A DNA stretch of 17,904 nucleotides from Thermus albus (GCF_022760855.1 NZ_JAKTNR010000018.1:1-17904), one strand, 5' to 3'. Positions 1-17,767 are shown, numbered from the stretch's first letter. The notes: generated by a model not told the origin, from the sequence alone. Numbers and translations: made by a program.

Positions 1-14
1 CTTACAAGTAAAGC

Positions 15-1394
15 ATGAATCCTCCTAGGGTCCTCGGCTATGGCCTAGATACCCTCGTGGTCAATCTCTACTGGCCGGCGGGCAAGTATCAGCTTCCTGA
101 GGGTTTTGAGGCTACGCTAAATGAGTTAAAGGACCTATATAGGCGGGACCCTAATGGGGCCATCCTCTGGGGTGTGGATGCCTATTTTCCTCTCCCTAAT
201 CCCGTGCCTGATTTGCCTTGGGGTCTAGAAGGGGACCTCTTTGAGGCGGCTATAGTGCAGCCTACGCGTCATTATGCGTGGCAGTTGTCCTTTGGCGGTC
301 TTGTTTTCGTGCGCCTGAGTGCTGTGAAGGATACTACCCGGCGGGCGGAGTTCCCTGCCATGCGGGTAGAGTTCACCGGTACCTACATGCGGTATGCAGA
401 CCGGGACGCGGAAAAGGTAGTGCGGTGGGTGTTGGATGCTGCGGAGAATCTCACGGGCACCCGTCCGCATAGGGTTCAGGTGTCCCGGGCGGATTTGTTC
501 GTGGACGTGGAGGCTAATCCGCTTCAAGTGACGGATATAGACCGGTTTACTAGTCGCTCCAGGGTGCGGGGGGTGTACTCCTTCGGGGTGGACCCCGGCC
601 GCGAGGCCGGGGCCACCCCAGAAGGGGGGCTCATGAGTAACACGCCCCCTGCTACGCGACTACGGGTTGCGGATTCTCTGGCAGAAGGGGTAGAGACTAC
701 CGCGGCTTTTTTGCGAGGCCGGGACTGGTCGGGCTTTACGTTCGGGCGTGGTCCCTTGATGGCTCGCGTTTATTCAAAGACGGTGGAGGCACGTTCTAAG
801 TATGAGACGCGTAACCTCCTCATGATGTATGAGGAACGCCACGGGCCTTTGACTGGCCACGTTATCCGTGTGGAGTTTCAGCTAACTACTGACGTGCTGC
901 GGGAGATGGTAGTGGTGGGTGATGGGTCCGATATTCGTGATTGGGATACGTTCCGGTGGGCTATTCCTGCAATCTGGGCGTACTTGACAGGAGAATGGTT
1001 GGTGCTACGGGATAAAGCGCGGGTGGACGCATATAACCGTTTGCGGGATGTGCCTGTGGACCCTCTATGGCAAGTGGTCCAAGGGGCATTCAATGAAGGG
1101 GGTGATAGGGGAAAAGGGGAACTAGTACGGGATAGGGTGTTCAGGCGTGTGGATCCGGTGGCCCTCGCAAAACAAGCGTTGGGGGCCTTTATGACGGCTC
1201 TCGCGGCTGTGGGGCGCATTGACCGGGTGGACTTGAAGAGTTGGTGGATAGGAGCCTTTAGGGCGTTAGGAAGGGACAAGGAAGAACGGGAGTGGCTAGG
1301 TAGGGAAGGGGCACTTGCCTACGGGCGTGCACGGCTACGGAAGATGGCGGTTTTTGGCGTAATGCCGGAAAAGTGGCGCTTTGAGGGGGTGTAG
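15..1394 (+). CDS. Rolling-circle replication initiation protein (pII/RstA-like, Rep_trans-type)
   Basis: 459-aa ORF, first gene of the phage module. Motifs resemble the Rep_trans family as I recall it: N-terminal GLDTLVVNLYW, MRVEFTGTYMRY, VSRADLFVDVE (RxDxxxD) and ARVYSK (YdK-like catalytic Tyr motif). There is an in-frame TAA at 9-11, so the ORF cannot extend further left. No SD is visible in the 14 nt upstream. Confidence 0.75.
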   Translation: MNPPRVLGYGLDTLVVNLYWPAGKYQLPEGFEATLNELKDLYRRDPNGAILWGVDAYFPLPNPVPDLPWGLEGDLFEAAIVQPTRHYAWQLSFGGLVFVRLSAVKDTTRRAEFPAMRVEFTGTYMRYADRDAEKVVRWVLDAAENLTGTRPHRVQVSRADLFVDVEANPLQVTDIDRFTSRSRVRGVYSFGVDPGREAGATPEGGLMSNTPPATRLRVADSLAEGVETTAAFLRGRDWSGFTFGRGPLMARVYSKTVEARSKYETRNLLMMYEERHGPLTGHVIRVEFQLTTDVLREMVVVGDGSDIRDWDTFRWAIPAIWAYLTGEWLVLRDKARVDAYNRLRDVPVDPLWQVVQGAFNEGGDRGKGELVRDRVFRRVDPVALAKQALGAFMTALAAVGRIDRVDLKSWWIGAFRALGRDKEEREWLGREGALAYGRARLRKMAVFGVMPEKWRFEGV

Positions 1395-1395
1395 G

Positions 1396-1695
1396 ATGCA
1401 GATTCTGGTCTTGGGCGTGAACATTTTCCAGCGGAAGGATGGGACTCACGGGGCTCGGATTGTGGTGGCGTCTACTCCACGCAATCCCAATACGCGCGGA
1501 CTAGTGGCGGCGGAGTTCGAGGTTTTGCCGGAAGTGGCGGACACCATGAAGGTGTTTCCGGGCATTTACAAGCTGGATTTGGAGCTTCCCATTTCTACCG
1601 GGTACGGTCGGCCTAATGAGGTGCGTCCGTTAGTCACCGGAGCAACGTTGGTGGCTCCTGTGGTGCCGGGGAAGAAGGATGTTCCTGCCTCCTGA
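1396..1695 (+). CDS. Putative ssDNA-binding protein (pV-like), assigned by position and size
   Basis: The ATG at 1396 lies 1 nt after the rep stop and is preceded by GAGGGGG. It encodes 99 aa (MQILVLGVNIFQRKDG...). The size and the position directly after rep match inovirus gene V. I recognise no sequence motif. The track start at 1381 is a TTG with no better support. Confidence 0.45.
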   Translation: MQILVLGVNIFQRKDGTHGARIVVASTPRNPNTRGLVAAEFEVLPEVADTMKVFPGIYKLDLELPISTGYGRPNEVRPLVTGATLVAPVVPGKKDVPAS

Positions 1696-1771
1696 GGCAT
1701 GGCAAGCCTTTTTGGTGGTTGCATTTGGGTTAGGTGTGATTGCGGGGCTGCTATCGGGGGGTGACTGGTGA
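1679..1771 (+). CDS. 30-aa hydrophobic microprotein (pVII/pIX-like minor coat candidate)
   Basis: My own translation gives MFLPPEAWQAFLVVAFGLGVIAGLLSGGDW. It has one TM-length hydrophobic core, GGGGAAGAAGG just upstream of the ATG, and overlaps the 3' end of the preceding gene. It is below the ORF-track size cutoff. Confidence 0.4.
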   Translation: MFLPPEAWQAFLVVAFGLGVIAGLLSGGDW

Positions 1772-1875
1772 TGGATGCTTCCCAGTGGTTCACGTGGTTT
1801 CTCGCCATTACCACCATCCCATATGTCCTTCTAGCAGCCTATCGCTACTTGGGAAAACTCTATGGAGGGCTATGA
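1771..1875 (+). CDS. 34-aa hydrophobic microprotein (pVII/pIX-like minor coat candidate)
   Basis: My own translation gives MDASQWFTWFLAITTIPYVLLAAYRYLGKLYGGL. Its start overlaps the previous stop as TGATG (1769-1773), and the SD-like GGGGGGTGA lies 8 nt upstream. It has a single hydrophobic helix. Confidence 0.45.
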   Translation: MDASQWFTWFLAITTIPYVLLAAYRYLGKLYGGL

Positions 1876-1963
1876 TGTTCGGGAGCTGTTCGGGGCCTTT
1901 TGGTGGGGGGTCGCTGCCGGTGTTGTGGCTGCGTTCCTCCGTAACCTTCTTCGTCGGCTCTAG
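1862..1963 (+). CDS. 33-aa coat-like microprotein (acidic N-terminus, hydrophobic core, basic C-terminus)
   Basis: My own translation gives MEGYDVRELFGAFWWGVAAGVVAAFLRNLLRRL. The charge layout is typical of DNA-contacting filamentous coat proteins. The SD is weak (GGGAAAA), and the ORF overlaps the previous one by 14 nt. Confidence 0.35.
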   Translation: MEGYDVRELFGAFWWGVAAGVVAAFLRNLLRRL

Positions 1964-2013
1964 GGACAATCGGGGAATAATCCCCGTGATGGTCCAGAAA
2001 GGGGGTGAGTAGG

Positions 2014-2154
2014 GTGGAGTTCCAGCCGGATCAGATCGCGAGCGCTGTTCAGACCTACGTTACGGCTATCGCTGCTGCGGGTGCCGGGGTGTTGGCTCTA
2101 ACTATCGGCCTTTCCGCGGCCTGGCGGTACGCCAAGAAGTTCCTCAAGGGCTAG
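2014..2154 (+). CDS. Major coat protein (pVIII-like), 46 aa, no signal peptide
   Basis: GTG start preceded by AAAGGGGGTGA. The product is (M)EFQPDQIASAVQTYVTAIAAAGAGVLALTIGLSAAWRYAKKFLKG. It has the same length as, and is near-identical in its C-terminal two thirds to, the 46-residue PH75 coat protein as I remember it (...AIAAAGxGVLALxIGLSAAWxYAKxFLKG). It lies immediately upstream of the pIII-like gene. Confidence 0.85.
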   Translation: MEFQPDQIASAVQTYVTAIAAAGAGVLALTIGLSAAWRYAKKFLKG

Positions 2155-2156
2155 GT

Positions 2157-3851
2157 ATGAGCTTAGGGCGGTTCCTCCTGCTAGGGGTGGTCCTGCTAGG
2201 GGGGACCGCCCTGGCAAATGCTCAGTACAAGGATGCGGTGAAGGGTGCGGTCCAGGGCATGACCCTGGATGAGATTATTCAGTGGAGCAATGGCCAGTTC
2301 CGGCGGCAAGCCACCATTGGGCGCTATGTACGCTGGGGTGGTTCTATCGTGTTGGGTTCGGCCCTGATTGCTGCGGGCTTGGATTATTTTTATAACTACC
2401 TTCGGCGGGAAACCGGAACGCCCTTGGACCAGTGGTATTATTGGGTGCCTTCCGTTGTGGCTGGGATAGGGGGCTACTGGGCTAAAGTGGATATGTCGTG
2501 TTCGGGGAAGTGTAATTATCGGTGTCTATATGGGTACCAGTGGGCTGTTTATGGCTATAGGTTTCCTGGTGGTAAGGTCGGGGGTACGGAGTCTACTGGG
2601 ACGGGATGGTATGATAGTCCTCCGTCGTGTTCGGTAGATATGGCGGAATCGTGGGCGAAGTCTCATTTTAAGCAAATGATTGGTGCCCCTTATTCATCAT
2701 GGGAGTGGCGTACGGCTAGTGAAAGCTATAAGAATGGGGTGCCGGAAAGTGATAGGTCGCGCTTCGTATCCGATTTGAGCTGGTTACGTCATGTGCTGGT
2801 GGAGCCGGGTGCGCAGCCCGATTTGGTGACGTGGCTCCAGCAGCATCCTGACGCGGCCAATGGGGTAAAGCAGGCGGTTACCCAGTACCTAACTGATACC
2901 GAACCGTCTTCTCCTTCCCAGCCCTGGCCGGGGGTGCGCCTTGAGCCGGTGCCGAACCCTAACCAGTGGACCGATAACCCCTTCACGCGTCCGGACATAG
3001 ACACTGACGGTGATGGCTATCCGGATTCCGTGGAGTGGCAAGAGGCTAATCGGCGTGGTGTACCCTGGCCGGACGTTATCAATGACCCGACCGAGCACCC
3101 GGACCCCAATGGTGATCCGGACGGGGATGGATACCCAACGCTGGAAGAGGTGCAGGTAGGTACTGACCCCTATGACCCTGCAAGTAACCCAGGTCCTCGC
3201 CGTCGTCCGTGGATAGATACCGACGGGGACGGCTACCCAGATTGGCAGGAGGTACAAGAAGGCACGGATCCAAAGGATGCCTCTAGTAGGCCGCGGGTGG
3301 CACCTGCCCCTAACCCTAATCAGCCTTGGGTGGATACCGACGGGGACGGCTACCCAGATTGGCAGGAGATTAGCGAGGGGACGGACCCGAATGACCCGGA
3401 AAGCCGGCCTTCTGTTCCCCCGGCTCCGCGTCCTGAGGAGAATCCGGATAAGGTGGAGTGGCCGGGGGCTCCTCCTGCTCCCGGGTTGAAGCCGGTTGAG
3501 TGGCCTACGCGGAGTGAGGAGCGCAAGGCTTTGCCTGAGGTGGATAAGCTCATTCAGCCCTTTGAGGATAAGGTGCTTCAGCGTTGGAGGGATGGGGTAC
3601 GGGAGATAAGGGAGACGGCAGAACGCAAGTTCCCGTTTGGCATCATTGCGGTTATCAGGGGCATGAGCATTAGCCGGGAGGGTGGTAACTGTACGTTCAC
3701 CTTCTCCGTGGGTCCTGCACAGGGGACCGTGGCCCCGTGCAACACTCCCATATTTGCGGTGGCTGAATCCTTCCGGCCAGTCTGGGCGGGTTTGCTCTGG
3801 GTGGCATTTGCTCTTGCTCTCGTGCGGAGGGGGTTGGACATCCAGCGATGA
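2157..3851 (+). CDS. pIII-like minor coat / host-adsorption protein with TSP3-type Ca-binding repeats
   Basis: 564 aa. It has an N-terminal signal peptide (MSLGRFLLLGVVLLGGTALANA|Q) and a Cys-containing N-domain (CSGKCNYRC...PPSCS). Four D-x-D-x-DGDGYP motifs are separated by Pro-rich linkers. A C-terminal hydrophobic anchor (VWAGLLWVAFALALV-RRG) resembles the pIII C-domain. Its position between the major coat and pVI-like genes fits this call. Confidence 0.75.
   Translation: MSLGRFLLLGVVLLGGTALANAQYKDAVKGAVQGMTLDEIIQWSNGQFRRQATIGRYVRWGGSIVLGSALIAAGLDYFYNYLRRETGTPLDQWYYWVPSVVAGIGGYWAKVDMSCSGKCNYRCLYGYQWAVYGYRFPGGKVGGTESTGTGWYDSPPSCSVDMAESWAKSHFKQMIGAPYSSWEWRTASESYKNGVPESDRSRFVSDLSWLRHVLVEPGAQPDLVTWLQQHPDAANGVKQAVTQYLTDTEPSSPSQPWPGVRLEPVPNPNQWTDNPFTRPDIDTDGDGYPDSVEWQEANRRGVPWPDVINDPTEHPDPNGDPDGDGYPTLEEVQVGTDPYDPASNPGPRRRPWIDTDGDGYPDWQEVQEGTDPKDASSRPRVAPAPNPNQPWVDTDGDGYPDWQEISEGTDPNDPESRPSVPPAPRPEENPDKVEWPGAPPAPGLKPVEWPTRSEERKALPEVDKLIQPFEDKVLQRWRDGVREIRETAERKFPFGIIAVIRGMSISREGGNCTFTFSVGPAQGTVAPCNTPIFAVAESFRPVWAGLLWVAFALALVRRGLDIQR
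2994..3368 (+). repeat. Intragenic tandem repeats encoding DxDxDGDGYP(D/T) calcium-binding motifs
   Basis: Motif copies start at 2994, 3101, 3213 and 3330. The last two units include an exact 36-nt duplicate, gataccgacggggacggctacccagattggcaggag, at 3216-3251 and 3333-3368. The period is 117 nt (39 aa). Confidence 0.9.
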
Positions 3852-3916
3852 CGTGGGAAAACCGTCACAACCCCTTCCATTTCTCCCCTTCCGCCCCCTT
3901 AACTGCCTATTGCCTC

Positions 3917-4053
3917 GCCGCGGGGTGCCGTCAAGGGCGTCAGTCCCCGGGCCGCCCTCCATCACGCACGTTTACCGTGTTCAAGGACGGGGTTTGGACA
4001 TGCAGGGGCGGCCCGGGGATGCTCTGCACCCTTGACGGCGGGGTCCCCGCGGC
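3917..4053 (+). other. Long nested inverted repeat (about 137-nt imperfect hairpin) in the 253-nt pIII/pVI intergenic region; candidate ssDNA packaging signal or replication origin
   Basis: In the outer stem, gccgcgggg (3917-3925) pairs with ccccgcggc (4045-4053), and gccgtcaaggg (3927-3937) pairs with cccttgacggc (4029-4039). In the inner stem, tccccgggccgccc (3944-3957) pairs with gggcggcccgggga (4006-4019). This is the only sizeable non-coding stretch inside the phage module. A T-rich run, tttgttttt (4084-4092), follows. Confidence 0.5.
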
Positions 4054-4104
4054 AGGCACCCTGCTCACGGGGGGCGGAAGGGGTTTGTTTTTGGGGGGTG
4101 GCTC

Positions 4105-4542
4105 ATGGCTGGTGTGTCGGCAATAGTAGAAGGCCTTCTGGATCTCCTCCGGTGGCTGGCCCAAACTGCTATAGGCTTCTTCGGCTGGCTCTGGCAGACG
4201 GTCACCGGCTTCGCGCATTGGGTCTGGTCTGTCCTGGACTGGGTTTTCGTCCATGCGTGGAACCTCTTTATTGATGTTTTGGGCTGGGCGCTGGGTTTTG
4301 TTTTTGAGTTCGTCGGTTCGCTGCTGGTGCTGGTGCTCAAGTTTGTTCTGTTACTCGTCAGCCTTCTACCGGACGTTCCAAATGAGTTGCTGCGGGGTGT
4401 TTCGGCCATCGTTCCTGCTGCGGGTATCGCTGACCGTATCCTGCCCATTTCTGATGCGATTACTATCGTGTCGTTGTGGGGGTCGTTTTATGGCGTAATG
4501 GCGATTTGGCGTGTTATTACCTTCATCAGGGGAGGGCGTTGA
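4105..4542 (+). CDS. pVI-like multi-pass membrane minor coat protein, assigned by position and topology
   Basis: 145 aa with several long hydrophobic segments (e.g. AIGFFGWLWQTVTGF, WALGFVFEFVGSLLVLVLKFVLLLVSLL). GGGGGGTGG lies upstream of the ATG. Its stop overlaps the Zot start as TGATG (4540-4544), and the gene sits directly upstream of the pI/Zot gene, as in Ff phage. Confidence 0.55.
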   Translation: MAGVSAIVEGLLDLLRWLAQTAIGFFGWLWQTVTGFAHWVWSVLDWVFVHAWNLFIDVLGWALGFVFEFVGSLLVLVLKFVLLLVSLLPDVPNELLRGVSAIVPAAGIADRILPISDAITIVSLWGSFYGVMAIWRVITFIRGGR

Positions 4543-5474
4543 TGATTGAAGCTTTTGTGGGCATTCCGGGAAGTGGCAAGAGTTACGCCTTGGTGGTTAA
4601 AGGCCTCGAGGCTCTGGCTTCTGGTCGCATGGTCTACGCAAACTTTGGCTTACTCCCCGAACGGGTTTACCTTTGGCTGCGCCTACGTCGTCGCTTGTCT
4701 CATCGTGATGCTGTGGAACGTGCTGACCGAATCCGTGAAATACGGGACTACTCGGACCTGCTAAACGTTCATGATGGCGTGTTGCTCTTTGACGAGGCCC
4801 ACATGTGGCTTCCCTCCCGTGAGTTTAGTTTAATCCCCACGGAGGTTATAGCCTTTTGGAGCCAACACCGGAAGGTCGGTGTGGACGTCTACCTTGCTAC
4901 TCAACGCTATGGCTCCGTGGATGCCATCGTGAGGGAGTTAGTGGCGAATGTGTATTGGGCTCGTCCTGCTCCCTTTTGGCTCCGCCTTCTCCTCCGTCCG
5001 TGGGCTCGTGGTCGTCCAGTGCTCCGGTACACCGCTATTATGGATGAGTCTTTCGGGACTATGCAGAAGGCGGTTAAGGGCCTTTTTGAGGGGGTGCAGC
5101 GCAATAGCGTGGTTATTCTGGACCCGTTAGCGGCGTCCTGCTATGATACGCACGCTATCTTCGAGCCGCCTATTGTGCGCCTTCAAAGGGAGATGGACCC
5201 TAAACGGCGGGCGATTCTCGACCGTATGGGCCTTTCGTGGGATGCCTCGCGTATTCAAGGGCGTCGGGAGTCCGGTGATGGTTTGCCCGTTCTGTCTATG
5301 CGTGAGTTGGCCGAGGCCTATCGTTCTGGTAGGCCTCCCCATGCCGTGCTTAGGGAAAAGTGGTTAACTACTATGCATGACCCTTCTCCTTCTGACCCTC
5401 CTCAGTCTGATGCTGGCCGCGTATTACCTGAGGAAGAGGGCACAGACTGGACCGCGTTCGCATGGCGTGGCTAG
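4542..5474 (+). CDS. Zot / pI-family inovirus assembly (morphogenesis) ATPase
   Basis: The ATG at 4542 is preceded by GGAGGG (4531-4536). The N-terminus MIEAFVGIPGSGKSYALV is a Walker A motif in the typical Zot context, and LLFDEAH is a Walker B-like motif. The product is 310 aa. The track start at 4476 is unlikely because it lies inside the pVI-like gene with no RBS. No TM helix is present in this frame (see findings). Confidence 0.9.
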   Translation: MIEAFVGIPGSGKSYALVVKGLEALASGRMVYANFGLLPERVYLWLRLRRRLSHRDAVERADRIREIRDYSDLLNVHDGVLLFDEAHMWLPSREFSLIPTEVIAFWSQHRKVGVDVYLATQRYGSVDAIVRELVANVYWARPAPFWLRLLLRPWARGRPVLRYTAIMDESFGTMQKAVKGLFEGVQRNSVVILDPLAASCYDTHAIFEPPIVRLQREMDPKRRAILDRMGLSWDASRIQGRRESGDGLPVLSMRELAEAYRSGRPPHAVLREKWLTTMHDPSPSDPPQSDAGRVLPEEEGTDWTAFAWRG

Positions 5475-5604
5475 GTGTCCCAAGTGTGGCATGCCTCACC
5501 GGTTGGCCTTGCAGGTTAAGGAGTATAAGCGTCATTGCCCTTATGTGGCTTATGGTCAATGCCCGTATGACCCTCGCCGTGGGGTGTATCGTATGAGGCG
5601 TTAG
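5377..5604 (+). CDS. 75-aa predicted membrane protein with a Cys/His-rich tail, overlapping the Zot 3' end in the +1 frame
   Basis: MTLLLLTLLSLMLAAYYL-RKR is a TM helix followed by positive residues. It is followed by CPKCG...HCPY...C, a zinc-ribbon-like spacing. This frame opens only at 5368, after a TAA at 5365-5367. No convincing SD is present. Confidence 0.4.
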   Translation: MTLLLLTLLSLMLAAYYLRKRAQTGPRSHGVARCPKCGMPHRLALQVKEYKRHCPYVAYGQCPYDPRRGVYRMRR

Positions 5605-5617
5605 GTTATACTGGCTT

Positions 5618-5746
5618 GGGGCGGGCGTGTTGTCGGGTAGACTTTTGGCCCTTTGTGGTCGTGCCTTAGACTGGCCATTACCCCTAGCGTGGTTAGTGTT
5701 GGCCCATTGTGGTCGTTTGTAAGAGTGCTGAAGGGGTGCCCGCCCC
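5618..5746 (+). ncRNA. Candidate IS110-type bridge (guide) RNA in the recombinase leader
   Basis: A perfect 9-bp GC stem (ggggcgggc at 5618-5626 with gcccgcccc at 5738-5746) encloses two copies of an 18-nt repeat. Each copy can form a GGCC/GGUC hairpin, and each is flanked by 9-10-nt segments. Segment 5662-5671 is the reverse complement of 6728-6737, segment 5691-5699 is identical to 6721-6729, and segment 5717-5723 is the reverse complement of window positions 1-7. A TATACT -10-like hexamer at 5607-5612 would place a TSS near 5618-5620. No ORF is present. Confidence 0.45.
5645..5716 (+). repeat. Two copies of an 18-nt direct repeat, TTGGCCC(T/A)TTGTGGTCGT
   Basis: The copies lie at 5645-5662 and 5699-5716 and are 17/18 identical. 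The single difference falls in the predicted 6-nt hairpin loop (ctttgt versus cattgt). A third partial TGGCCA unit lies at 5672-5677. Confidence 0.9.
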
Positions 5747-14771: not shown

Positions 14772-15566
14772 ATGCGCTTGAAGGTGGACGTTCTCCCCAC
14801 GGAGGGGTTGGTCTACCCCGATGTGGTCCTGGTGGTGGATGTGATCCGCTCCACCACCACCGCCGTCTGCTTCCTGGAGGGAGGGGCGGAGGCCCTGTAC
14901 TTGGTGCCCAGCCTCGAGGCCGCCCGGACCTTCAAGGACCGGGACGTGCTCCTGGCGGGGGAGGTGGGGGGGTTAAAGCCCCCGGGGTTTGACCTGGGAA
15001 ACTCCCCCCGGGAGGCCCTCGAGGCCCCGGTGGGAGGCAAGACCGTGGTGATGAGCACCACCAACGGCACCAAGGCCGCCCACGTGGCCGCAAGGACCGC
15101 CAAGCACGTGCTCCTGGCCTCCCTCTTTAACGCCCACGCGGCCGCCCGCCTGGCCCGGGAGCTGGCCACGGAGGAGGTGGCCATCCTGGCTGCCGGGAAG
15201 GAGGGGCGGGTGGGCCTGGACGACCTCTACACCGCCGGGGTCCTGGCGGAGTACCTAGGCCTTCTGGGGAAAGTGGAACCCGAGGATGGGGCCAGGATCG
15301 CCTTGGCGGTGAAGCGCAACTTCCAGGACCCCCTGGAGGCCCTCACCCTCTCCGCCGCCGCTTCGGCCCTTAAGGGAGTGGGCCTCGAGGCCGACGTGCC
15401 CTTCTGTGCCCAGGTGGCCAAAAGCGCCGTGGTCCCCGTCCTCACGGGCCGGGTGGGGGAGGCCCTCATCTTCAAGGTGGCCCCCTTCGGGGTGGCCAAG
15501 CGGGCGGTCCCCGAAACCCTAAAGCAGCCGGGGAACCAGGCGCAGGAAAAGGACCATCCCCAGTAG
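14772..15566 (+). CDS. comB: 2-phosphosulfolactate phosphatase family protein (ComB-like)
   Basis: Contains [22 protein letters not shown] and [10 protein letters not shown], which match the ComB family pattern. The SD GGAGGA lies upstream. The last 48 nt overlap the convergent permease gene, so the true C-terminus is uncertain. Confidence 0.7.
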
Positions 15567-16448
15567 CTCCACCAGGGACTGGAACACGATGACCAGGGGA
15601 GCCAGGCCCGCCTCGGGTACGGCCAGGCTTAAGGGGAGCACCAAAAAGGAGTTCCGGGTGCCCAGGCTGAAGGCCAGGGTCCTGCCCGCCTTGGGGGGAA
15701 GGCGGAATGACCGGGCCAGGGAAAGGGCCAAGCCCAAGGCCAAGACCAGGTACAGGACAAATACCCCAAGCAAGGGGAGAACATACCCCCATAGCCCCGG
15801 CAAAAGGCCCGCATGCCCCAGGGCCACCAGGAAGACCACCAGGGCCAGAAGGGGCACGGGCCAGGAGGTGGTCCGGGACACTAGCGCCTTTCCCCAGGGG
15901 CGGCCCTGTACCCAGAAGGCCAGGAAAAGGGGCAGGAGGACCACCAGGCCCGCCCCCACCAGGGTCTCTGGGTCCGGGTGGTAGGCCGATAGCGCCTCCC
16001 CGAAGAACAGTAGAAGGTAAAGGGGCAGAAGGGCGAGTTGCAGGAGGAGGTTCAGGGGCGTCAGGACCAGGGCCCGGGCCATATCCCCCCGGCCTAGGTA
16101 GCTAAAGGCTAAAAACCAGTCGGTGCAGGGCACCAGGAGGACCAAGGCCACCCCCAGGCGAAGCCCCGGTTCCGGAGGCAGGAGGTGGAGGAGGCCATAT
16201 ACGCCCAAGGGCACCAGGAGGAAGTTCCCCACCAACCCCGCCAGGAGAAAGGCCCGGTCGCGGAAAGCTTGGCGCAGGGCGCGAAAGGGTACCGGCAAAA
16301 AGGTGAAGAAGAGCAAAACGGCCAACGCTGGCCAGAGCAGGACCTCGCCCCAAGGGGCAAGCCCAGGGAAAGCCAACCCCAAGGCCACCCCCAGGAGAGC
16401 CGCCCCCAGGTATAGGGGAAGCTGGTAGCGCTCCAAGAGGCCCCCCAC
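15519..16448 (-). CDS. Multi-pass permease, ACR3 / bile acid:sodium symporter (SBF)-like
   Basis: 309 aa and very hydrophobic, with about 8-10 TM segments. [19 protein letters not shown] resembles the ACR3/BASS signature region. The GTG start lies 5 nt after the upstream M20 stop. Confidence 0.55.
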
Positions 16449-16453
16449 CCCGC

Positions 16454-17767
16454 CTAGCCCCCTTGGACCAAAAGCTCGTAGAAGCGCCTTAGAGTAGCGA
16501 TGCCCTTCTCCAGGTTCACCAAGTCAAACTTCTCGTTGGGAGCGTGGAGGTTGTCGTCGGGAAGCCCCAAGCCCAAGAGGACGATGGGGGCTCCCAAAGC
16601 CTCTTGGAGTTCCGCCACCACCGGGATGCTCCCGCCTTCCCGGGTGTACACCGGAGGCCTGCCCCAGACCTCCTCCAGGGCCTGGGCCATGAGGCGCATG
16701 GGGGGGCTAAAGGGGTCGGTGAGAACAGGTTTGCCCCCGTGGAGGCGGAGGATCTCCATGGTGTAACCGGGCGGGCAGATCCCCCGCAAATAGGCCTCTA
16801 CCAAGTCCCCCACCTCCTCCGGGTCCTGGTCCGGCACCAGGCGCAAGGAAACCTTGAAGCCCGCCTCGGCGGGGATCACCGTCTTGGAACCCTCCCCCTG
16901 GTACCCTCCCCAGATGCCATTCGGGTCCAGGGTGGGCCGGGTCCAAAGCCTCTCCAAGGGGCTAAAGCCCTCCTCCCCAGGCAGCACCTCCACCCCAAGC
17001 TCCCTCTTCAAGGCCTCCTCGTCCAAGGAGGGCCAGAGCCTTTTCTCCTCCTCCGAAACCTGCCGAACTCGGTCGTAAAGGCCGGGAACCAGGATCCTCC
17101 CGGTTTTTTCGTCCTTTAACTTAGATAGAATCCACCCAATGGCTTGGATGGGGTTGGGAGCCACGCCGCCGAAACTTCCGGAGTGCAGGTCCCGCCGGGC
17201 CCCCCTCAGGCGCACCTCCAGGTAGGCCAGGCCCCGTAGGCCATAGGTGAGGGTGGGGGTGAGGGGGGCGAACATGGCCCCATCGGAGATAAGGACCACG
17301 TCGGCTTTGAGCTTCTCCCGGTGCTCCCGCACGAAGGGAAGAAGGCTCGGGCTGCCGATCTCCTCCTCCCCTTCCACCAACAGCTTCACGTTCACCCGGG
17401 CGGGCAGGTCCTCGAGGGCCGCCACATGGGCCCAAAGCTGCCCCTTATCGTCGGAGGCCCCCCGGGCGTACACCTTTCCTTCCCGCACCGTGGGGACGAA
17501 GGGGGGGGTTTCCCACGGCTCCAGGGGATCCGGGGGCTGGACGTCGTAGTGGCCGTAGACCAGAACCGTGGGGGCCTTGGGGTCCAGGAAGCGCTCGGCG
17601 TAAAGGATGGGATGCAGGGGGGTCTCATGGAGCTCGGTGTGGAAACCCCGCTCCCTAAGCCTCTCTGCAAGCCAGAGGGCCGCCTTGCGAAGGTCTTCCT
17701 TTCGGGCCGGGTCGGTGGATACCGAGGGGATGGACAAGAACTCCAAAAGGGGCTCTAGCGTCTTCAC
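16454..17767 (-). CDS. M20-family metallopeptidase (dipeptidase / ArgE-DapE-CPG2-like)
   Basis: 437 aa with a GTG start. Contains LVYGHYDVQPPDPLEPW, ARGASDDKGQL and EGEEEIGS, the M20 metal-binding and catalytic motifs. Confidence 0.85.
   Translation of the reverse strand: MKTLEPLLEFLSIPSVSTDPARKEDLRKAALWLAERLRERGFHTELHETPLHPILYAERFLDPKAPTVLVYGHYDVQPPDPLEPWETPPFVPTVREGKVYARGASDDKGQLWAHVAALEDLPARVNVKLLVEGEEEIGSPSLLPFVREHREKLKADVVLISDGAMFAPLTPTLTYGLRGLAYLEVRLRGARRDLHSGSFGGVAPNPIQAIGWILSKLKDEKTGRILVPGLYDRVRQVSEEEKRLWPSLDEEALKRELGVEVLPGEEGFSPLERLWTRPTLDPNGIWGGYQGEGSKTVIPAEAGFKVSLRLVPDQDPEEVGDLVEAYLRGICPPGYTMEILRLHGGKPVLTDPFSPPMRLMAQALEEVWGRPPVYTREGGSIPVVAELQEALGAPIVLLGLGLPDDNLHAPNEKFDLVNLEKGIATLRRFYELLVQGG

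Follow-up and report, generated by a model that had tools for sequence, protein, structure and literature searches.

A predicted bridge RNA and IS110-family recombinase at the right end of a filamentous prophage in Thermus

How does a filamentous phage of a thermophile enter the chromosome of its host? The question is raised by a 17,904-nucleotide stretch of Thermus albus DNA (GCF_022760855.1, NZ_JAKTNR010000018.1:1-17904; hereafter the window), which is essentially the whole of its source contig (17,906 nt) and begins at the core of an attachment site. Judged by their sequence, positions 1-6731 are the intact genome of a temperate filamentous phage that belongs to the phiOH16/Zuza group, and the Thermus chromosome that carries it is close to that of Thermus altitudinis. 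A preliminary description of this DNA had ended the element at 5606 and so overlooked its integration module: homology to the Thermus phages phiOH16, Zuza8 and Zuza27 reaches ~6463, across an open reading frame (ORF) at 5750/5759-6676, and homology to the host starts only at ~6720 in eight Thermus genomes or metagenome-assembled genomes (MAGs). The omitted stretch, 5467-6731, contains a zinc-ribbon ORF, a structured RNA, an IS110-family recombinase and the right attachment site (Table 1). Our analysis suggests that integration is very probably RNA-guided. What appears to be new is this right end, a module of bridge RNA and recombinase whose guides would specify the attachment sites of both phage and host, with consistent covariation across more than 12 related elements.

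The recombinase matches the Pfam families DEDD_Tnp_IS110 (PF01548; E 5.5e-23) and Transposase_20 (PF02371; E 2.5e-21), and passes the NCBIfam equivalog model NF033542, 'IS110 family RNA-guided transposase', with 198.9 bits against a cutoff of 140. It aligns over its full length with the bridge recombinases of solved structure (PDB), ISCro4 (E 2.8e-36) and IS621 (E 4e-34), and its catalytic D, E, D, D and S do not vary among its relatives, IS621 and ISCro4. As the name of the NCBI family implies, homology leads one to expect an RNA partner, though none has been described for these viruses. A search of IMG/VR with the recombinase as a single protein gave no match, and an alignment-based search of the same collection gave two loci.

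A candidate for this partner is encoded directly 5' of the recombinase gene. Gene I and the recombinase are separated by 280 bp with two segments, each followed by a similar small hairpin, and the region is conserved in phiOH16, Zuza8, Zuza27 and about 14 hot-spring metagenome or IMG/VR contigs. From 11 non-redundant copies, RNAalifold returns a closing stem around two units, each consisting of a stem, an internal loop and a hairpin; 94.5% of cells are paired in this consensus fold, compared with 38-58% in slid controls, and five pairs are changed on both sides. A covariance model built from this alignment finds exactly one match per phage, always directly 5' of the transposase gene (tnp) that encodes the recombinase; in the window the match spans 5614-5749 and scores 99 bits. 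In addition, the -10-like hexamer at 5607-5612, 5-7 nt 5' of the closing stem, would be the RNA's own -10-like box.

The layout of this predicted RNA recalls that of known bridge RNAs. In IS621, target recognition falls to the first internal loop and donor recognition to the second; the 5' side of a loop pairs with the bottom strand over 8-9 nt and the 3' side with the top strand over 4-7 nt, around a CT core (PMC11208160). The Thermus module shares with IS621 and ISCro4 a DEDD + Ser recombinase, an RNA placed directly 5' of the gene, and two internal loops in the order target, then donor. Unlike theirs, the RNA here has a closing stem in place of a separate 5' stem-loop.

The host gene at the right end, which is similar to phosphoglucomutase/phosphomannomutase (PGM/PMM) genes, served to retrieve the corresponding locus in other genomes, and T. 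altitudinis, T. scotoductus, T. caliditerrae, T. composti, T. tenuipuniceus, T. parvatiensis and two MAGs proved to lack the insert. The flank in T. altitudinis is 97.7% identical to the window at the nucleotide level. In the empty locus, a uvrD/pcrA helicase gene lies on the other strand, 33 bp from the PGM-like gene, and the site reads ...GAGTCTACCAC GGGGTAGACT CT AAGGC ATG. Positions 6720-6739 of the window read ...GGGTTAGTGT CT AAGGC ATG, and its start reads CT TACAAG TAAAGC ATG, where the ATG opens rep. Comparison of these three sequences therefore places the crossover within (T)CT, at 6729-6731. The insertion point lies 5 bp upstream of the PGM-like start codon, inside the 33-bp divergent promoter region shared with uvrD/pcrA, and the left junction would be expected to read ...CCACGGGGTAGACT-CT-TACAAGTAAAGCATG, with uvrD/pcrA on its left. 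The composition of the insert also differs from that of the host, with a GC fraction of 0.53-0.63 over 1-6750 versus 0.62-0.71 in the remainder of the window, and GC skew is positive throughout 1-~6750; the preliminary description was thus right that the phage genes are an insertion in a Thermus chromosome. The host attachment site (window 6720-6740; L005 9950-10003, where L numbers designate the loci that we compared) is a 21-bp near-palindrome, GAGTCTACC AC GGGGTAGACTC, which carries back-to-back the -10 hexamers of the divergent, apparently leaderless uvrD/pcrA and PGM-like genes.

All four guide segments fit these sequences. The left target guide (LTG) corresponds to the left arm of the host attachment site (attB), GGGTAGACT followed by CT, with nine identical bases, a U opposite G (wobble) and a U in the core; this arm was taken from the empty-site genomes, as the contig holds the right side only. 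The right target guide (RTG) has the reverse complement CTAAGGCA, which equals window 6730-6737, that is, the core and the host right arm, at 8/8 positions. In the second loop, the left donor guide (LDG) agrees with the phage left arm GGGGTTAGTGT at 6719-6729 in 10/11 positions, and the right donor guide (RDG), as the reverse complement CTTACAAA, agrees with window 1-8 in 7/8, being exact for window 1-7, CTTACAA.

We propose that the phage's own IS110-family recombinase would carry out integration, guided by the ~130-nt bridge RNA encoded directly 5' of its gene. The first internal loop would pair with the host site GGGTAGACT-CT-AAGGCA and the second with the phage site GGTTAGTGT-CT-TACAA, and strands would be exchanged at the shared CT. 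The donor would be the entire 6.7-kb circular replicative form, not a 1.5-kb insertion sequence (IS). The recombinase and its RNA might alternatively be a passenger IS110 element within a phage that integrates by other means, such as the host XerCD recombinases acting at a dif-like site, or homologous recombination. Indeed, IS110 elements are normally ~1.5 kb long with the RNA 5' of the gene (PMC11208160), and phage phiOH3 lives without the module (PMC4763002). We consider a passenger element extremely improbable, however, in light of where the donor loop finds its match. This loop fits the tnp-rep junction, and the match of its right guide lies ahead of rep, 5.6 kb away in the prophage, and not upstream of the RNA; as there is also a single phage attachment site (attP) per free genome, the CT-bounded element is therefore the 6.7-kb phage.

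The genome of phiOH3 itself speaks against a passenger IS. It retains the 5' half of the bridge RNA (L003 29-151, closing stem and target loop), with a 61-bit partial match to the covariance model, and the last ~100 nt of tnp, and it has lost the donor loop and most of tnp. phiOH3 is a deletion derivative of a phiOH16-like phage, in which the deletion runs from inside the RNA, past the target loop, into the 3' part of tnp. The breaks fall inside the RNA and tnp and not at the ends of an IS, which is not what excision of a separate IS would leave.

If guides specify the sites, it should be possible to predict attachment sites from the RNA. With guide columns fixed from the alignment, 16-mers were built from the guides alone for attP (LDG plus the reverse complement of RDG), attB (LTG plus the reverse complement of RTG) and both recombinant junctions, and these were sought on either strand of every locus. 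In the window, the hybrid 16-mer of LDG and reverse-complemented RTG is found at 6722-6737 with 0 mismatches, where the next best match has 4 and the chance expectation is ~1e-5 over 2 x 17.9 kb. In the free circular genomes of Zuza27, Zuza8 and phiOH16, the attP 16-mer is found with 2, 1 and 2 mismatches, respectively, always in the tnp-rep spacer (next best 4-5), and the attB and hybrid 16-mers were not found; in prophage loci the hybrid 16-mers were found, and the attP and attB 16-mers were not. The attP matches (L001 931-946, minus strand; L002 930-945, minus strand; L004 1130-1145, plus strand) always lie within the spacer of the rep promoter.

In the window and in 14 other loci, the ends of the prophage fall where the hybrid sites are predicted, 13 of the 14 at 0-2 mismatches, which is a further argument against a passenger IS. 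Both ends are visible in L017 (1 and 1 mismatches) and L020 (1 and 2 mismatches). One junction was found with 1 mismatch in L014 and L018 and likewise in L016, L021, L024 and L025, and with 2 mismatches in L022 and L023. The ends of L019 (70-85 and 6732-6747) have 3 and 2 mismatches, and L026, whose junctions are at contig ends, gave no clean match. For the two closest complete prophages, in the genomes of Thermus sp. PS18 (L087) and T. caldifontis (L088), the right junctions (attR) were read by eye and agree at 16/16 and 14/16 positions. Two of these loci have features of their own. The L087 prophage precedes a Rad52-like gene and is itself nested in a second prophage-like region, which has integrase, S24 peptidase and helix-turn-helix genes. 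At the right prophage end of L021 (~1830-1890), a ~27-nt tandem duplication, GGGGCTTGACAAGTG(G/C)GAGTTGTGAG, precedes the host flank, and may be the scar of a second recombination or of a half-site event.

Guides and sites also change together. A cross matrix of guides versus sites is diagonal-dominant, with the pairs of own guide and own site at the top, and three elements with the LTG CCGGTAAGCT occupy three different host sites, each with CCGGTAAG-CT. The phiOH16 and Zuza phages have the same RNA 5' of tnp and the same TTGACA after tnp as the window, whereas the target loop of the window addresses a different host site. The donor strand is the tnp strand in the window, phiOH16, L014/L018, L087 and L088, and the opposite strand in Zuza8, Zuza27 and the L016-L026 group. 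Because the targets differ and the donor strand has flipped, both loops would have been rewritten as the phages diverged. For the free phages, the guides predict host targets at CCAGTATA-CT-TTCCCA (phiOH16) and GGGGTAAG-CT-TTGGGA (Zuza8) in T. thermophilus HB8, and at TGGGTAAA-CT-CAAGGA (Zuza27) in T. thermophilus HB27.

Could the recombinase instead read its sites through protein-DNA contacts, such that the conserved upstream sequence is a 5' untranslated region or regulatory element, and the attachment-site matches are by-products of -10-like motifs? All targets are -10-like hexamers before leaderless genes and the phage arms are -10-like too, so that some similarity is to be expected, and the stems contain few compensatory changes. 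The matches nevertheless outrun the hexamers, as the RTG fit extends into the start codon, and the right-hand guides stand in reverse-complement orientation. Moreover, the guides covary with the sites between lineages, including the flip of the donor strand, and the homologous enzymes IS621 and ISCro4 require RNA (PMC11208160). Recognition by protein contacts of this kind seems to us very improbable.

Guidance by the bridge RNA, which we favor, has a number of observations against it, and these should be set out together. The left host flank is outside the contig, and attB and the left junction (attL) are reconstructed from other genomes; look-ups of the exact rep, pIII-like and PGM-like protein sequences matched no record from which the flank could be taken. 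Guide boundaries were chosen on the window and afterwards applied to the other loci. The site of L019, CCGGTAAG-CT-TGGGAA, fits its own loop (GGGGTAAGCT / CACCCAAG) worse than it fits the loop of the L016/L024 lineage; either this element inserted off target or the metagenome contig is chimeric. In L087 (8900-9000, 16230-16280) and L088 (8900-9000, 15632-15680), the LTG match is 9 nt long and ends 2 nt before the core, and attL of L087 has GT in place of CT. Structural covariation is modest, as the stems are mostly invariant, with double changes in 5/32 pairs and an alifold covariation term of ~0. Against 58 distant IS110 loci, the covariance model found nothing convincing (best 19 bits, E 0.17), and a search of all Rfam families at E up to 1 gave no RNA match, a lone long non-coding RNA match in host DNA being spurious. 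The kinship with the IS621 RNA is one of architecture, not of sequence.

The position of attP within the phage genome suggests what integration may do to replication. Between tnp and rep, the free phages read TTGACA-N17/18-TACTAT, TACCGT or TACAAT, with the TAnnnT hexamer 6-11 nt before the rep start codon. When the two ends of the window prophage are joined, the same arrangement results: TTGACA (6708-6713), an 18-nt spacer, TACAAG (3-8), TAAAGC and ATG. Because the core lies in the spacer between -35 and -10, integration would split the rep promoter, leaving the -35 box after tnp and the -10 box before rep, and excision would re-join both. The phage resembles the circles of IS110 elements in that its core is CT and that a promoter is divided by the junction of the circle (PMC11208160). 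The promoter formed at the junction of IS110 circles serves their own RNA (PMC11208160), however, whereas the one here faces rep, ~5.6 kb upstream of the RNA. The mobile unit, unlike IS621 or ISCro4, is not a 1.5-kb IS but a virus of 6.7 kb that has a capsid and replicates by itself.

The other partner of the crossover also looks like a promoter element. All reconstructed host sites have a -10-like hexamer a few bases 5' of the start codon of the host gene, namely TAGACT-CTAAGGC-ATG at the window locus, TACACT-CCCTCTG-ATG in L088, TACACT-TTAGGT-ATG in L087 and TAAGCT-TGGGGG-GTG in L017. At the window locus, this hexamer is swapped for that of the phage, so that the lysogen reads TAGTGT-CTAAGGC-ATG. 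After integration, the hexamer of the phage arm is of the same kind and at the same distance, TAGTGT in the window and TAGTCT in Zuza-type elements. Perhaps TAGTGT, in the place of the host's TAGACT, keeps the leaderless host gene expressed. The promoter switch and the surrogate -10 box are plausible ideas that we put forward tentatively, with slightly more doubt than confidence. Similarly tentative is the wider proposition for the whole family of hyperthermophile filamentous viruses, that integration guided by bridge RNA with the entire viral genome as donor, natural reprogramming of the guides, a repressor-free switch and a surrogate promoter element all hold jointly; we would not quite commit ourselves to it.

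By now the prophage could also be an inactive remnant, fixed in place and unable to excise or to produce virions, in keeping with the single junction visible in the window. All ten protein genes are open, however, no catalytic residue has been lost, and both the RNA and attR are flawless. The site is also empty in the closest genome, in which the adjacent gene is 98% identical at the amino-acid level in addition to the nearly identical flank described above, and the insertion is therefore recent. Furthermore, the contig breaks exactly at the attachment-site core, from which we infer that circular and integrated forms of the phage, or occupied and empty sites, might have coexisted in the reads. 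An inactive remnant thus strikes us as unlikely.

A role for IS110-family enzymes in filamentous phages has been proposed before. For the Neisseria filamentous prophages Nf and MDA-phi, integration is thought to depend on an IS110-family (Piv-like) transposase of their own, which lies at one end, as it does here (Kawai et al. 2005, cited in PMC4763002 and PMC11437467). The Neisseria hosts and the structural genes of these prophages are unrelated to those of the Thermus phages. In the searchable literature, we found no paper linking Nf or MDA-phi to a bridge RNA. A 2026 preprint describes expanded IS110 elements as a size continuum to ~100 kb, with mostly plasmid-derived cargo gained by progressive additions (bioRxiv 10.64898/2026.08.14.744561). 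Unlike in those elements, the 'cargo' here is a complete, conserved virus genome, and the donor site is built into the replication promoter. Like CTX-phi and other inoviruses with Rep_trans initiators, the window phage has an initiator of Rep_trans fold and an assembly ATPase of the Zot type, and it lacks a secretin gene. The Rep_trans family includes RstA of CTX-phi. CTX-phi integrates through the host XerCD at dif (PMC4763002), whereas the window phage carries a predicted RNA-guided recombinase of its own.

Bridge recombinases are familiar from the very small insertion sequences that they drive, and programmable tools for writing genomes are being developed from them. In the present case an entire virus seems to rely on one for lysogeny, at ~70 °C. 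The enzyme and its RNA are a candidate thermostable pair, and the natural series of reprogrammed guides, in more than 12 elements with visible junctions, may yield rules for tolerated guide length, wobble and register. For models of inovirus lysogeny, the promoter arrangement suggests that a repressor-free filamentous phage could control replication through splitting its rep promoter. In addition, prophage finders that halt at the Zot gene lose the integration module, two conserved small ORFs and the RNA.

The prophage by itself is not new. Among phage genomes searched with blastn, only the Thermus phages Zuza27, phiOH16, Zuza8 and phiOH3 match the window, at ~70% nucleotide identity; the matches to these relatives have 69-72% identity across 35-49% of the query, and the window phage is a candidate for the genus Thomixvirus. 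The gene order tnp, II, V, VII, IX, VIII, III, VI, I is common to the window and all four phages, and in phiOH16, Zuza8 and Zuza27 an IS110-family transposase lies between gene I and gene II on the circle. Amino-acid identities to these relatives are 52-78% for Rep and 55-63% for the recombinase. The window phage is a distinct lineage, and the closest Rep is that of Thermus sp. PS18 (77%). Proviruses of Thermus inoviruses that share this layout are already on record (PMC4763002, 2016; PMC11437467, 2024), so that the window prophage is an ordinary new member of a known group. The Zuza paper reported integrated proviruses in several Thermus isolates, with an endonuclease at one end and an IS110 transposase at the other, and proposed transposase-mediated integration by analogy with Neisseria Nf (PMC11437467, 2024). 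A guide RNA is mentioned in neither PMC4763002 nor PMC11437467, and in the searchable literature we found no paper tying a bridge RNA to filamentous phages or their IS110 transposases.

This comparison revises the preliminary description in two further respects. Its label of an Ff-style phage does not suit a group that the reference records place in Paulinoviridae (Thomixvirus), apart from the Ff phages. Its likening of a 5.6-kb element to phiOH3 also falls away, as the prophage measures 6.7 kb, close to phiOH16 (6533 bp), Zuza8 (6773 bp) and Zuza27 (6680 bp), and phiOH3 has lost sequence. Its account of the gene set was otherwise sound: every gene that it listed is present and co-directional, with stop and start codons overlapping or abutting. 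The predicted Zot protein matches the Pfam family above its gathering score, the coat protein aligns end to end with that of PH75 and also with that of phiOH3, and a secretin gene is lacking, as it is in phiOH3, phiOH16 and the Zuza phages. The label 'IV' in the phiOH3 record refers to the Zot protein (PMC4763002).

Table 1. Features of the prophage and its right flank in the window (coordinates from the first base of the window).
Feature	Position	Strand	Evidence or remark
attL, CT core	1-2	+	Contig starts here; window 1-8 reads CTTACAAG
Putative -10 box of the rep promoter, TACAAG	3-8	+	Paired with the -35 box only in the circular form
rep, rolling-circle replication initiator (gene II position), Rep_trans-like fold	15-1394	+	PHROG 33635, E 1e-167
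Gene V-position protein, single-stranded DNA-binding by position only	1396-1695	+	PHROG 38435, E 2e-30; syntenic with phiOH3 gene V
Minor coat microprotein, gene VII-like, 30 aa	1679-1771	+	PHROG 35129, E 2e-7; Pfam Inovirus_G7P_2 weak (E 0.0016, under family cutoff)
Minor coat microprotein, gene IX-like, 35 aa	1768-1875	+	PHROG 38437, E 3e-14
Third hydrophobic microprotein, 33 aa, MEGYDVRELFGAFWWGVAAGVVAAFLRNLLRRL, between genes IX and VIII	1862-1963	+	Conserved in relatives
Major coat protein, 46 aa, GTG start	2014-2154	+	PDB 1HGV (PH75 coat), E 2.7e-17, residues 1-46 vs 1-46
Adsorption protein, gene III-like, 564 aa	2157-3851	+	PHROG 36046, E 9e-147; Pfam TSP3_bac, E 6e-21
GC-rich hairpin, III-VI intergenic	3944-4019	+	14-bp perfect arms (3944-3957 / 4006-4019), 48-nt spacer
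Minor coat protein, gene VI-like, 145 aa	4105-4542	+	PHROG 37052, E 2e-32
Assembly ATPase, gene I / Zot, 310 aa	4542-5474	+	Pfam PF05707 Zot, E 9.3e-15, 55 bits vs cutoff 20.3; PHROG 20922, E 2e-135
Small basic four-Cys zinc-ribbon ORF (CPKCGMPH...CPYVAYGQCPYDP)	5467-5604	+	Conserved; start GTG 5467 (overlaps gene I stop) or ATG 5377
-10-like hexamer TATACT (TAGAAT in most relatives)	5607-5612	+	Conserved column in alignment of 18 loci
Bridge RNA (predicted), ~130 nt	5618-5746	+	Closing stem 5618-5626 with 5738-5746 around target-binding and donor-binding loops
Left target guide (LTG), GGGTAGACTTT	5635-5645	+	Target loop, 5' side
Right target guide (RTG), TGCCTTAG	5662-5669	+	Target loop, 3' side
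Left donor guide (LDG), GTGGTTAGTGT	5689-5699	+	Donor loop, 5' side
Right donor guide (RDG), TTTGTAAG	5716-5723	+	Donor loop, 3' side
tnp, IS110-family (DEDD + Ser) recombinase, 305 aa	5759-6676	+	From ATG 5759 (ORF list: TTG 5750)
Putative -35 box of the rep promoter, TTGACA	6708-6713	+	Every relative has (C)TTGACA behind its tnp stop codon
attR, phage left arm GGGTTAGTGT and CT core (6730-6731)	6720-6731	+	Followed by host DNA
Host PGM/PMM-like gene	6737-7633	+	Pfam PGM_PMM_I and II; 98% amino-acid identity to T. altitudinis

The remaining genes of the phage fill in this picture, and their PHROG matches are strong and lie in very small families. For the initiator, the preliminary description had reported Rep_trans motifs. 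At the sequence level this does not hold, as Rep has no Pfam, NCBIfam or PDB match even with 21 homologues. At the level of the fold it does: an AF2 model built from the alignment of these 21 homologues (pLDDT 81, pTM 0.70) has, by Foldseek, RepDE of Staphylococcus aureus, a Rep_trans protein, as its only significant PDB neighbors (4CWE/4CWC; E 3e-7, probability 1.0), followed by TBP folds. This model supports a place for Rep with Rep_trans at fold level.

Among the structural proteins, the coat protein is ~70% identical to that of phiOH3 gene VIII, and the central Pro/Asp-rich part of the adsorption protein contains four repeats of the bacterial TSP3 type (thrombospondin type 3, calcium-binding). 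The third of the microproteins that the preliminary description had listed is real. By tblastn, it is found in every relative with 59-72% identity and the stretch ...FAAFWWGLGAGLVASFLRN.LRRL, and it is without an annotated coding sequence in the GenBank records of phiOH3, phiOH16, Zuza8 and Zuza27. Likewise unannotated in the reference records is the zinc-ribbon ORF, which is 73-79% identical at the amino-acid level in Zuza8, Zuza27 and metagenome relatives and truncated in phiOH3 and phiOH16; Pfam gives only sub-threshold zinc-ribbon matches. It lies directly 5' of the bridge RNA and could be a regulator or directionality factor.

Between genes III and VI, an inverted repeat with other arm sequences and a 48-56-nt spacer occupies the same place as the window hairpin in 5/6 relatives examined, and L087 has instead a 15-bp repeat with a 29-nt spacer. 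The hairpin is a candidate for a single-stranded DNA packaging signal or a complementary-strand origin. Two ORFs in this part of the phage were considered and set aside. The 92-aa ORF at 3848-4126, in the III-VI gap, is weakly and patchily conserved, and the region was read as non-coding with the hairpin; the 358-aa minus-strand ORF at 2889-3965, inside the repeat region of gene III, was treated as spurious. In the host part of the window, an AT skew of +0.5 at 15500-16500 (plus strand) corresponds to an ordinary minus-strand gene for an SBF-family membrane transporter.

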